A stretch of DNA of 62,943 nucleotides, the filler included, from Rhabdomonas costata (Eukaryota): NCBI GenBank assembly GCA_019059605.1. It is 40 parts of 40 records of this genome, joined end to end, with 100 filler letters (N's around TTAATTAATTAA, not from the genome) between each part and the next. Parts side by side here need not be neighbours in the genome. Positions count along the whole stretch, not along the records: positions 14,200 to 15,675 come from JAHMHO010014941.1; 39 more parts are not named here. One strand, 5' to 3'. The notes under the pieces were generated by a model. That model saw only the letters and a program-made list of their open reading frames with translations. It was not told the DNA's origin and made no database searches. Positions 14,091 to 32,296 of the stretch are shown piece by piece. A program made the translations under genes and the position numbers. Positions within the stretch are counted from its first letter, which is position 1. Every line of letters starts with the position of its first letter.

Positions 14091-14688
14091 CACACCACAN
14101 NNNNNNNNNNNNNNNNNNNNNNNNNNNNNNNNNNNNNNNNNNNTTAATTAATTAANNNNNNNNNNNNNNNNNNNNNNNNNNNNNNNNNNNNNNNNNNNNT
14201 GTTGTTGTTCGCACTCGATTCTCACCACTGTTTCACGAATGGCACAAGCGTTCCGTTGGCAGCAAACACACGTTTGCTTGAGAATAGATATGGAGAAAAA
14301 CGACAGGTGTGCCAAGCAGAGAGTAGAAATTATGCTTACAATGTTCGGAAGTGAATACAAATTAAATGAATACACTTAATTCCAATTCGAACTTCATAGT
14401 TGTACAAGAAACTGCGTTGAGCTTACTCATCCCGAGACGAGACTGTCAGACTCCGCATTCTTCGATAAGACCCGACTAAGAGTCAACTTATATCCGAAGT
14501 CGAGCAAGAAAATTCTCAAACCACAACCGGCCCCACTGATAGCGAAGGCAGTAAGGAAGCTGTAGGCGAAAAAGAAAAACAAAACAAACTGCCCTCTACA
14601 ATACGAAATATACCAAAGAAGTATACTTCGTGTCACCGGTCCCGTTAGAAACAGTACCACCTCGCCCCAGGTCAAAAGTCCACAGGGA

Positions 14689-15675
14689 TCAGTGGCAGAG
14701 CAAAATTGATGCCAACCAGGCAAGCCCCAGGGTGGGCACGCGTCTCTGCTCGCACCAGTCCAACACTCCGAGTAGAAAATAGGCCAAATGGATGCCCAGA
14801 AATCGGAAGGGCTCGGGCTCCCACAAAGGAAGCGGGAGGTTCACCCATGGAAGTGCCGTGAGGGCGGTACGTCGTCGCAGGATCAGGTCGGCCAAGGTCC
14901 GCCCGGCGAGATTGGAGGTCGCCAATCCGTCTCCCAGGTACCCACCTGCCCACCCAAGACCTGTGGTGGTGTCGAAGCAGACTCGGGGCAGCTGATCCCG
15001 GGCCATCCCAAGGACTCCACACCAAGAATGAGCCAGAGGAACTCCCCGCGTATCGGGGAAATGGCGGTGGAGCTGCTCCACAAGGCGCTGGATGGTGAGG
15101 AGGTCAGGCTTCCCATCCTCGTCTATGGCGGAGCCAAAGCAGTTTAGAGCCTTGCAAACTCATGGGACCAATAAACGCCTATCTGGCTCAACGTTGGCTC
15201 GCCAAAACTTTAGGAAGAAACAAGACGACCAGAACTGGTTTTTCCTAAAGAAAGAAAGGAAACTTGCAGACCCGAAGATCGTCACCCATTTTTCTGGAGT
15301 GATACTGAAAAGGACCAGAGTGCAGAAATTTCGAGAGAAAGATAAATTAATAGGCGGATTTTGGTCCCAGCAGTCGCGCAGCCCATATGCGATAAGGATT
15401 CCCCCGCCCCCCCATAACAATACGGCCATCCGGGGTTCGGTGGGCATAGCAGTACATGTTACTGAAATCTCCAAGAAGCTCATTGCCATGCCAACCGATG
15501 CGCTCCCACGCCAACTTGGGGAGCGGCTCTGTGATGACCTGCGCGGAGTTCAGGGGGAGTAGCGCCCTCTCTTGCCCGGGAAACCCCGCAGTGAAGCCCT
15601 CGGTGGCTCGAATTACAAACCGTGAGAACACAACACCTCGGTCAGTGTAAACGCGGCCTGGGGCGATGGATTGCA
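14689..15675 (-). CDS. FAD-dependent oxidoreductase (DAO/PuuB-like, bacterial type), two exons
   Basis: Exon 15675-15391: VIRATEGFTA..PLNS..ITEPLP..W..IGW..YAHRTPDGRIVMGGRGNPY. Exon 15140-14689: FGS...HSWCGVLG..RD..GLGWAGGYLGDGLATSNLAGRTLADL..LPWV..WEPEPFR. Confidence 0.9.
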
Positions 15676-15953
15676 NNNNNNNNNNNNNNNNNNNNNNNNN
15701 NNNNNNNNNNNNNNNNNNNTTAATTAATTAANNNNNNNNNNNNNNNNNNNNNNNNNNNNNNNNNNNNNNNNNNNNTGCCCCAGGCAGGAAGTGCCTTTTT
15801 GGATCCTGGCTATCGCCGATCTGGACATATTTGTGTGGTTGAGTGTGAGTAGTGGGCGGAGGGTAAAACCTTCTGATTTAAAAAGACATGAGCACGTCAC
15901 ATGCACGTTATGTGTGACCGTGCGTGTGTGTGTATGTGTGTGTCGCGGATTAG

Positions 15954-23737: not shown

Positions 23738-25080
23738 TTCCCTGTGGAGTTCCAGTGGCAGTACTCCGATCCTGAGCTTGGGGCTTTCCAGATTATTCCT
23801 GCCCAAGGGGTGATACCAGCCTCCGACAAGCTCCACAAGGTAACTTGTCCCGAATCTTCCTGTTTCTATAAACGGGCGCCCATGCTTTTTTCGGGAATTC
23901 ATTGATACTTAGTCTGATTTGCTATGTGTCATTTTGTATTTCCTTGGTTACTGTTGGGGATCGTCACTGCACTGCACAAGTTCCGCAAATTACCAGAAAC
24001 GCTCAAGCAGATGTTTAGGCTGACACTGAATGCAAGTGTTGGGGAGATTGGGACAAGAAGAAGAAGTGGCGATACAGAAAATGAAGGGCGAGAAGACGGT
24101 TGGCTGCCGGGTCAGGTGCCCGTTCTTCTGTTGATGTGGACTGGAATGTGTGTGTGTTTGTGTGTGTGTGTGTGCCGTTTTCAGGGGAGAGTGCTGTGCG
24201 TGGTTAAGTTCTCGCCCAAGGAGCCTGTGAACCACTACCGCCGCGCATACTGCTTGCTGGGAAACACCTACACGGCGCTCTGTGTAGATCTCCTGGGCAG
24301 CGGGTTTGATGAAAAGGTGGCTGTTTCTCGCTGCGCAGCATGCCGCAATCGCTGTCTCTTCCTCCCTCCCCCACCAGCACCACACATGAACACCCCGGAC
24401 ACAGTTGTTGTGTATGTAGGTGGGCTGGGGCGCTTTTTGCTTTTACCAGGAGAACAAGCGGCCCGCTCCCTTCACCCAGAAGCATGTGGACCTGCATTGG
24501 AGCCGACTGAAGCAGGGCTTGCTGAAGATCACTCCAGAGGAGGCGGAGGCGACCTTGAAGGAGCTCGAGAGTTCGGTGTGCGCCTTTTGGGAAACCACTT
24601 AACAACGAAGCCCCATCCCTTGTCAGGATTGCTTGCTCACCTTTTGGTTCGAGAGGAAAAAGGTATGATTGCATATCGGGACCCTTGTTGTCGACTTATG
24701 CGATTTACTCGCAGGGTGATATGGCTTCCATGCAGGCGGGGTCTTTAGCCCTCAGCCCGACGACAGGATCACCCAAAAGCGCGCTTCGGAAGCCTGGCGA
24801 GATCTGGGAGGTGATTGTGATTGTGATGCCGATTACGTCGTTGGAGTCACAAAAAATTTGGTTGCGGTACCCTTTCTGCGTATATTTTGCATCTCGATTT
24901 GCATTTGTACTTGTGTGGTGCTAAAAGAAACCTTCCTCACCTGGTTAATCCGTCCCCAGGCACGACCTGGAGCTCCTGCTTTTCGACTTCTTAGGAGATC
25001 TTTGTCCGACCATCGGACTCTGCGAAGCTTCCGTTTTACCTGGACTATTCCGAGCTGGACTTCTCCACCGTCCCCGCAAG
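23738..25080 (+). CDS. CFAP65: Cilia- and flagella-associated protein 65-like, five exons
   Basis: Exons 23738-23839, 24185-24316, 24450-24575, 24715-24810 and 24995-25080, all phase-consistent. KFSPKEPVNHYRRAYCLL...VDLLGS...RPAPFTQKHV resembles CFAP65 F.P..PINYYRRV.CL...LDLIGT...KPA.L...HL. Confidence 0.78.
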
Positions 25081-29859: not shown

Positions 29860-32074
29860 NNNNNNNNNNNNNNNNNNNNNNNNNNNNNNNNNNNNNNNNN
29901 NNNTTAATTAATTAANNNNNNNNNNNNNNNNNNNNNNNNNNNNNNNNNNNNNNNNNNNNGTGGTGTGGGATTTTCAACTGCAAGTTGCAGCCACTGCTGT
30001 GATTCAAAGAAGAGAGATTTCAACCACGGCTCCACGGCTCCGATTCTGGCGGTGCGCGCTGTGGGGGAATTGTATTGGGGGGAGAAGGATGAGCGTGCTG
30101 AGAGGGGTCGACACCTGTGTAGGATGAACAGGGCCCTTCCGCTCGCGAGGTCCGGTGGTAGTGCCTGCGTCGTCAACCGCACCCTGCAACGGGAGGGAAT
30201 CATATAAATAATCCCATGCACACCACCCCATCACTCGAATCCATCCCTTTGTCTGCTTTCGTTTTGGATTTTGGGGACAGAGTTTCCGCCTTCGGCTCTG
30301 GCGCCACCGAGCAGCTCCCTTCCCCAAGAAGGGAGGGAACATACCCGTAGTGAAGGGTTGATTGCGGGATAAGGAAAACAAGGGAAGGGATGCGTTGATG
30401 ACGCAGAAAAACCGGATGCAGCACACGCGGGGGGTCAGAGAGACGAGATGAAGGGTAGATCTCCCCAATCTACAAAGTGAAACCATGGAAAATATAAGCA
30501 AGAGGGACATGCCGCGAAGGAGCGGTACCGACCACCGAACAGGGAAGACTTCCGGAGGTCGGGGGAAGTAATATCGGGTTCTGCCGGTTGGTCCTGTGCA
30601 GCAGCACAACAAACGGGGGAATCATAGTTGTAGCGGTTCCCACTCTCACAATCATTACATCTGGGTTACCAGATGTAATGATTGGGTTTCTGGGCCTGAG
30701 GTTTTCTCAAGGGTCTGCAAGCGTCCCGTTTTCTCGCTCAGGGAGGTTAAGCCAACACGGATGGTAGTGAGGAGTCAGTCTGGACGATCACAGCGCCCAC
30801 GGCTAGCCTGCTGTGAACGTGTGTTTGCCGTTTGCCGTGGGAGAGGTCATTTGTCTCCAGGTATATATAGAACGGTCTATCGAATTGCTGCCCGACAAAA
30901 AGGCGAAAAGCTGACGTAATCATTTTCAAAGGTCCTTGGTCCAACTGCTTGGGGACAGAAACGTTTTGCTGTCTCCATCTTTCGTATTCTGCGGCCATCT
31001 AAGATGGGCGCAGAATACTGATTCGATCGAACTCTTTCGTAGTCGGAACGAGTTGCAACACAACCGTCTCACTGAGACAAGCGCCGATATCGCTTGGCTC
31101 GGCATACACGGACTTAGTTTGCTTGCATTCTGGAGATGAAGTGATCACTTTCGAGTGACGCACTCGCAATCAGGATGTACGCCGGGTAGTAAGAGTAAAG
31201 AATAAATGTTCCTGGGTTAATCACCGTCCTAACGCGGGTGGTGTTAGTCGTGTTGTTACGATGGGCTGTGTCTGTTGGCTCTGCTGTCATGTCATTGGCA
31301 CATATAGCGATCCCAATGGGTGGGACTTCATTGGGGCCTGAATTACCGTGAGGAACTGTCACCTTTCATCCCCCCTCCACCTCCCCTCGCCGAGGTTTCC
31401 GCAATCACCCTAGAAGACCTACTCAACCCCCCACCNNNNNNNNNNNNNNNNNNNNNNNNNNNNNNNNNNNNNNNNNNNNTTAATTAATTAANNNNNNNNN
31501 NNNNNNNNNNNNNNNNNNNNNNNNNNNNNNNNNNNGGTTTTGGGGGTGGGTTAGATTTTTTTGATCATTTAGTAGTGATTACATAAGATAAGATACGCGT
31601 GACCTCCGTGACCGCCAGAGCAAGCAGTGCAACTCCAACTTTAGAATCTCGCAACGGCAACCTGGAAAAAGGAAAAAGGAAGTCATGTATTAATGAACCG
31701 CGTCTCCGCTGCCTTAAACACTCTCCCTCAAATGACTCCTTGGCGGGTCTCCTCTCAGCGCTACTTACTTACTTCACCGTAAACAGAAACTGGTTTGTCT
31801 GCCGGTTTTTGTCTCAACTGGCTTGGGTTTCGTACTGCTGCATTCGAGCGGTCGCAACTACGATTTGGCATCTGAAAAACCGTGTTGTCTTAGTGGTTGA
31901 GATCATTTCAATACTCAATCAGTAAAACTTTCGTGCAAAAGCGGTACAACATCGATCTACGCGGTCGATTGGATAAATCTAAGGCAAACGATATCCAAAG
32001 TCGAACTACACCACGCATGTTACGGCATTGGTGGTTGATGTGGGTACTTGGCTGGGGGAGGTGGTCAACCACAG

Positions 32075-32296
32075 GCCCTGCAGTACAATGAGAAGCTCAA
32101 AGAGCGCTTCAAGGTCTTCCCCGAGGTCAACCGGCTGCTGCAGCGGAGGCACATCCCGAAGGAGGTCCGTGCGGCGCTGCGTACCCGCCGCGCAATGGAG
32201 CGGGCGGAGATGCGGCACCAAGAGAACGTCGTGCTGCGCGGCGGTCAGGTCAAAAAGCATGTCCTCCGGGATGCCGTGCTCAAGGTGGAGCAGTGA
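32075..32296 (+). CDS. SOF1: SOF1/DCAF13 C-terminal (Sof1 domain) last exon
   Basis: ALQYNEKLKERFKVFPEVNRLLQRRHIPK...EN; AG acceptor and TGA stop. Confidence 0.88.
   Translation, partial: ALQYNEKLKERFKVFPEVNRLLQRRHIPKEVRAALRTRRAMERAEMRHQENVVLRGGQVKKHVLRDAVLKVEQ

Follow-up and report, generated by a model that had tools for sequence, protein, structure and literature searches.

What is the 250-nt sequence that interrupts a conserved motif in an oxidoreductase gene of Rhabdomonas costata: an intron, and if so of what class, or an insertion in an inactive gene copy? The locus lies in a window (the whole stretch of DNA that was analysed) of 62,943 bases, which consists of 40 contigs of 1473–1485 nt each from a single, highly fragmented assembly. 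The contigs are joined by linkers of the form N44-TTAATTAATTAA-N44 (e.g. at 1477–1576, 14100–14199 and 15676–15775), and therefore adjacent stretches are not physically linked and features that cross a linker are meaningless. The locus under study is a minus-strand gene in the contig at 14200–15675.

The oxidoreductase gene and its interruption

Two open frames on the minus strand, 15350–15673 and 14692–15159, match the Pfam DAO profile (PF01266) at profile positions 187–271 and 276–353, respectively. The profile coordinates thus nearly abut across the interruption, one match ending at 271 and the other beginning at 276. The upstream exon (15391–15675, minus strand) is partial and extends to the contig edge; it encodes part of a DAO-family FAD-dependent oxidoreductase, as seen from PF01266 (187–271), TIGR03329 (214–304) and the homologue alignment, and ends with ...PYR, the last codon being split as C|GC. 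The downstream exon (14689–15140, minus strand; PF01266 276–353) runs from FGS to a TGA stop codon at 14689–14691, where the C-terminus of the homologues is reached. NCBIfam matches are weak and are of the aminophosphonate-oxidoreductase and pipecolate-oxidase type. The 3′ flank (14200–14688, minus strand) shows no Pfam match at E ≤ 0.0001 (14430–14840, minus strand; 14555–14779, plus strand, at E ≤ 0.001) among the three scanned stop-to-stop frames of at least 75 aa that overlap it.

The closest database relatives are FAD-dependent oxidoreductases of ~460 aa with 52–63% identity. Those that carry an organism name are bacterial without exception, and belong mostly to Paracoccaceae and other Alphaproteobacteria. 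The motif ...PY[RK][FY][GA]S... is uninterrupted in all seven homologues that were fetched. A previous inspection, the sequence-only reading, had proposed that removal of exactly 250 nt restores this motif, and the alignments bear this out: the joined exons align without a gap across the junction with each of three homologues (scores 744, 722 and 729), and the alignment reaches their C-termini. Both flanking frames are open, over 94 and 149 codons (243 in total), and they end where the homologues end.

The exons have a GC content of 0.61 (GC3 0.67); that of the insert is 0.45 and that of the 3′ flank 0.44, and this contrast is the pattern expected for a eukaryotic gene. The GC3 of 0.67 is lower than the 0.81–0.93 found in the CCT-gamma, ERI, myosin and EMP70 exons of the same window. 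Of the 116 columns that are near-invariant (conserved at 95% or more in 112 close homologues), the gene retains 90, a count that cannot discriminate a live gene from a pseudogene because the references represent one narrow bacterial clade. These 112 references are 440–480 aa in length; eight of the 120 matches listed were left out for length.

Read on the minus strand, the last bases of exon 1 are ...TAT C, down to 15391, and exon 2 opens GC TTT at 15140. The interruption between them (15141–15390, minus strand) reads GCATATGG...CTCTAAACT from 15390 down to 15141, a length of 250 nt. The dinucleotide GC is present at both junctions; with the borders placed in this way, the first copy (15389–15390, minus strand) forms the first two intron bases, and the second copy (15139–15140, minus strand) opens the downstream exon. 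Since GC occurs at both junctions, three placements lead to an identical mRNA: 15141–15390 with borders GC..CT, 15140–15389 with CA..TG and 15139–15388 with AT..GC. These sliding borders had been described before and are present in the sequence as described; none of the three is GT-AG, and none has an AG end. The placement 15141–15390 reads C|G...T|G, i.e. it has Y|R at both junctions. It should be pointed out that a 2-nt GC repeat is weak evidence when taken alone, as it is expected by chance in about 1 in 16 cases.

An in-frame TAA is found at 15347–15349 (minus strand), 14 codons into the insert, and retention of the insert would truncate the protein (open reading frame 15347–15727). There is no pyrimidine tract in the 250-nt element: over −33 to −4 the pyrimidine fraction is 0.53 and the C fraction 0.20, versus 0.77 and 0.47 in the GT-AG intron of the CCT-gamma gene. 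A U12-type AT-AC reading of the AT..GC placement was dropped by eye against the U12 consensus, as its 3′ end is GC and only 3 nt separate the branch-like CTCTAAAC from the border. Rfam covariance models gave no family at gathering score in the window, and a search of the contig at E ≤ 1 gave a single match, located in exon 2 (E 0.37). With Rfam matches insufficient, a group I, II or III intron or another catalogued structured RNA was also dropped.

Pairing of the two ends

The 9-mer TGGGACCAA is found at 15163–15171 on the plus strand and at 15361–15369 on the minus strand. It is the perfect core of a longer subterminal inverted repeat, the 5′ arm of which spans 15350–15374 (minus strand; +17 to +41 of the intron) and the 3′ arm 15158–15182 (minus strand; −42 to −18 from the 3′ end). 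The 25-nt arms are 80% complementary. When the first and last 60 nt were compared after shuffling, an exact inverted 9-mer appeared in 8 of 2000 cases, and an ungapped score of at least 11 in none of 2000.

Folding of the RNA, a check that the sequence-only reading had called for, indicates that the ends pair. With 10 nt of flank on each side, the intron has a folding energy of −79.4 kcal/mol (z = −3.08; 1 of 200 shuffles was as good). The predicted ensemble has 32 long-range pairs between +1 and +42, with probabilities that are mostly 0.84–1.0. Positions +1 to +3 pair across the 3′ border, with the final base of the intron and the two bases that open the downstream exon (0.84–0.89), +7 to +11 pair with −7 to −11 (0.87–0.98), and the 9-bp core (0.89–1.0) is followed by another block of 8 bp. 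In this model, an interrupted helix of ~32 bp reaches the junctions and zips both ends of the insert. With the borders at 15141–15390, the terminal 10 + 10 nt joined by seven U residues have an energy of −4.3 kcal/mol.

The earlier proposal that the intron ends are complementary therefore holds, with one correction. The 9-mer is where it was said to be, and weaker pairs (0.84–0.98) extend out to the junctions, but the strongest repeat is subterminal and begins 16–17 nt inside each border. Of the outermost 17 positions, 7 are shared between the two ends (counted by eye; 4.25 are expected by chance). The insert also contains an internal hairpin at 15208–15250 (minus strand), with 15-nt arms that are 87% complementary and 13 nt apart. 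In addition, purine-rich direct repeats are present within the insert (15222–15348), spaced 83–87 nt apart and with 75–83% identity; these might stem from an old internal duplication.

Introns of the window and the euglenid class

A Pfam scan of 394 distinct stop-to-stop frames across the window revealed genes for an ERI-type exonuclease, CFAP65, CCT-gamma, a myosin head, EMP70/TM9SF and Sof1, as well as a WD40 exon and a reverse-transcriptase fragment. In the ERI-type 3′–5′ exonuclease gene, which lies in the contig at 4730–6208, the reading frame shifts over 5339–5397 (plus strand), and removal of these 59 nt restores a frame that is colinear with the solved ERI3, exon 1 extending to about residue 118 and exon 2 starting from about residue 119. 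This nonconventional intron has CC..GG borders, CAG at +4 to +6, CTG at −9 to −7 and 7 terminal base pairs, and the terminal 10 + 10 test gives −8.0 kcal/mol. Its motif and spacers are those of the genetically defined code for Euglena nonconventional introns, 5′-N3CDG...CH′GN5-6|R (PMC12501133), but the downstream exon starts with T rather than with a purine. A downstream exon starting with T is described as tolerated in one of two introns tested (PMC12501133).

GT-AG introns are present as well. The CCT-gamma gene (contig 52017–53491) has one of 457 nt, from 53202 down to 52746 on the minus strand, with a C-rich pyrimidine tract (C 0.47), and the gene further shows an AG acceptor upstream and a GTATGT donor downstream. 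The gene for the flagellar protein CFAP65 has a GT-AG intron of 345 nt (23840–24184, plus strand), the acceptor of which follows a long (GT)n microsatellite. A myosin head exon (55568–55794, minus strand) lies between AG and GT. A WD40 repeat exon (59893–60126, plus strand) lies at a contig edge, and the C-terminal exon of Sof1 (32039–32293, plus strand) has the stop codon at its end.

The EMP70/TM9SF intron can be read in two ways. One reading (58619–58829, plus strand) has ACT CTG...CAG TGTAC|A, with spacers of 3 and 5 and a purine at the exon start, and has a single residue separating Pfam positions 322 and 324; the other (58635–58824, plus strand) is GT-AG, in frame, and adds eight more residues. 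Either reading may be correct; Pfam profile coordinates favour the motif-conforming one, and a solved homologue to fix the junction was not found. Two other features of the window are side observations. The frame at 57132–57521 (minus strand) matches RVT_1 (E 2.7e-9) and is a retroelement fragment, and ARAGORN reports a tRNA-Asn of 94 nt at 53339–53432 (plus strand), antisense within a CCT-gamma exon, which is probably a false positive.

The assembly is treated here as euglenid-type, because the ERI intron that carries the motif is found side by side with GT-AG introns, the mix described for Euglena. In E. agilis, GT/C-AG introns are reported as 28% of all introns (PMC12501133), and for E. gracilis, 11,527 GT-AG and 16,151 nonconventional introns are given (PMC11170887). 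The best ERI matches include kinetoplastid and bodonid proteins, and the fragmentation of the assembly resembles that of published euglenid drafts. A genome of the hemistasiid diplonemid type was rejected, as ~97% of the introns are noncanonical there and GT-AG introns are present here.

The 250-nt element shares several features with nonconventional introns as described for Euglena gracilis and E. agilis (Milanowski 2014/2016; Gao 2024; Nomura 2025). These are the non-GT-AG borders, Y|R at both junctions, the short direct repeat at the junctions, the structure that joins (zips) the ends, the lack of a pyrimidine tract and a length within the reported range. Y|R borders are reported in 49–55 of 55 characterized E. 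agilis introns (PMC4770533), and 84.4% of the introns of this species are described as slidable (PMC12501133). Most nonconventional introns of E. gracilis are reported to have terminal energies of −10 to −2 kcal/mol (PMC11170887), a range that includes the −4.3 kcal/mol found here.

The element differs from the class in the pairing near its ends, which is the feature most strongly conserved among such introns, and in the motif. In the 55 characterized E. agilis introns, +5 and +6 pair with −7 and −8 in all cases, +4 pairs with −6 in all but one, and CAG/CTG is present in 33 (PMC4770533). In the Y|R placement of the 250-nt element, positions +4 to +6 set TAT against TCT at −8 to −6, with no pairs. 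Only the placement 15140–15389 is in the canonical helix register, with +6:−8 as G-C and +7:−9 as G·U; it has mismatches at +5:−7 (U:U) and +4:−6 (A:A), and C would be the first base of the downstream exon. Full pairing of +4 to +6 with −8 to −6, and CAG/CTG, are absent from all three placements. There is no +4,+5/−6,−7 pair, the helix nearest to the ends starts from +7/−7 (+6/−8 when slid by one base), and the strongest repeat is internal to the borders. The element also departs from the genetically defined code.

Splices that follow the code were sought with donors between −45 and +59 nt of the 5′ junction and acceptors between −60 and +44 nt of the 3′ junction, without use of the purine rule as a filter. 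None of the eight in-frame combinations kept the conserved residues: five delete conserved residues, those of the split motif among them, and three give a stop codon. A code-conforming alternative splice was therefore dropped. Nonconventional introns that lack the code are nonetheless numerous, as the code is reported for just 61.2% of the RNA-supported nonconventional introns of E. agilis, and 38.8% are without it (PMC12501133). The original assignment to the euglenid nonconventional introns thus survives in a modified form: the Y|R borders, the junction repeat, the zipped ends and the presence of the ERI intron in another contig speak for it, and the unpaired +4 to +6/−8 to −6 and the missing CAG/CTG against it. 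The 250 nt may best be regarded, with a probability of roughly 0.55, as a member of this class, located in a nuclear gene, that has no motif and is atypical, because the CAG/CTG pairs at +4 to +6/−8 to −6 that are normal in the class are absent.

If the element is such an intron, its ends in the pre-mRNA would zip together in the interrupted helix of ~32 bp, from the junctions via +7 to +11/−7 to −11 into the perfect 9-bp core, and this helix would set the two junctions side by side. The euglenid machinery for introns of this kind would then cut both junctions and join the exons to yield ...PYR|FGS.... The intron would probably be released as a circle, by analogy with tubA introns, for which a review reportedly describes circular release. 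It is less probable that the element is efficiently excised without the CDG/CH′G motif and the +4,+5 pairs. Knock-in assays are described in which the tested intron was no longer spliced once a single base of CAG or CTG was substituted or the donor spacer was altered by 1 nt (PMC12501133).

Other explanations and significance

A MITE-like insertion has long been proposed as the origin of euglenid nonconventional introns, and the sequence-only reading had pointed to a resemblance to an intron derived from an element with terminal inverted repeats. Beyond the presence of an inverted repeat, this suggestion found no support. Like MITEs and transposon-derived introners, which have terminal inverted repeats and a target-site duplication, the insert is short and non-coding, it combines an inverted repeat with a 2-nt repeat at its flanks, and its removal precisely restores the frame. 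However, the arms at 15158–15182 and 15350–15374 are not at the very termini beside a target-site duplication, and the 40 contigs contain no set of related copies. A blastn search of the window with word size 7 found only chance matches of at most 15 nt in the other 39 contigs, and TGGGACCAA with at most one mismatch occurs 16 times in the window versus 22 expected.

Among known introners, those of Micromonas and Aureococcus are described as having canonical splice sites, which are absent here. For an inverted repeat at a variable distance from non-canonical borders, the closest parallel is with the non-canonical introner elements of Amoebophrya (Farhat et al. 2021, PMC7789003), as described there: these share non-canonical borders, inverted repeats (8–20 nt in Amoebophrya) at a variable distance from the borders, and direct repeats at the junctions. 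They differ in that they belong to dinoflagellate parasites, have direct repeats of 3–5 nt compared with 2 nt here, and form repeated families, whereas no second copy is found in the 39 other contigs here. Introns of hemistasiid diplonemids (Thakur et al. 2025, PMC12621601) share variable terminal dinucleotides and strong end pairing with the 250-nt element, but the proportion that is noncanonical (~97%) and the median lengths (37–91 nt) differ from the window, where GT-AG introns 345 and 457 nt long occur.

The main competing explanation is that the insert is not spliced at all, and that it is either a former nonconventional intron now decayed or an element of the foldback or MITE-like kind, in an inactive or recently disabled gene copy. 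Transcripts, if any, would end at the in-frame TAA that follows the first 14 codons of the insert. The absence of a motif reported as required in mutagenesis of a tested intron, the mismatches at positions that are reported as always paired in the class, the combination of an inverted repeat with a 2-nt flanking repeat and a GC3 below that of the housekeeping genes of the window all agree with this. So does the finding that the spliced product has no identical or near-identical protein among 5.8 billion proteins; with exon 2 as query, the best matches in the ‘longer’ and ‘near’ length classes have 63% and 60% identity, and no match spans the junction. The missing database protein says nothing on expression, however, because the ERI exon of the same assembly likewise has no match above 60% and the collection does not include this organism. 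Against a disabled copy, the flanking frames are intact over all 243 codons and colinear to the C-terminus of the homologues, the inverted repeat is neither terminal nor found in a second copy in the other 39 contigs, and code-less nonconventional introns are reported as very common in E. agilis (PMC12501133). An unspliced insertion is on this evidence unlikely, but it is the alternative that deserves most attention.

Two further explanations are less probable. A conventional spliceosomal GC-AG intron of 232 nt, from 15382 down to 15151, would be in frame, and GT/C-AG borders are treated as conventional in euglenids (PMC11170887, PMC12501133). It would leave six extra residues between PYR and FGS, where all seven fetched homologues are gapless, and the alignment scores fall to 728, 706 and 713, i.e. 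by 16 in each of the three alignments. The donor, GCTGCG, does not resemble any of the four GT donors of the window (GTTTGA, GTATGT, GTAACT and GTGTGC), and the tract before the AG is not rich in pyrimidines (Y 0.53, C 0.17). The exact colinearity obtained by removal of 250 nt would then be a coincidence, and the GC-AG intron is considered improbable. Still more remote is a bacterial contaminant gene with a small insertion element, or an assembly chimera. Although the best matches that name an organism are all bacterial and contamination has been reported for one published euglenid draft, the best identity among the 5.8 billion proteins is just 63%, and among metagenome contigs it is 54% (419 relatives, none of them close). 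A contaminant also agrees poorly with the strong step in GC content between the exons and the insert plus 3′ flank, and with the 489 nt of low-GC sequence past the stop codon that contain no Pfam-recognizable gene. The borders of a chimera would not restore the frame and the conserved motif exactly.

Euglenid nonconventional introns are already known as abundant, and the finding of one more candidate will not surprise specialists, since a single genome contains hundreds of thousands of them. In annotation, gene-prediction software that relies on GT-AG borders would truncate or split the DAO gene at its conserved motif. If the element is an intron, it offers a natural case outside the code whose exon borders are unambiguous by virtue of a conserved bacterial-type protein, and hence a convenient substrate for the rule followed by code-less introns. 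Because all of the relatives with an organism name are bacterial, such an intron was probably gained after the gene entered the lineage, and a gain of this kind would fit the idea of an insertional origin for the class. If efficient excision without the motif proves true, the machinery may be able to read geometry alone, i.e. a long helix that closes at the junctions, with +1 to +3 paired across the 3′ border. The element would then be a natural representative of the ~39% of nonconventional introns that lack the code.
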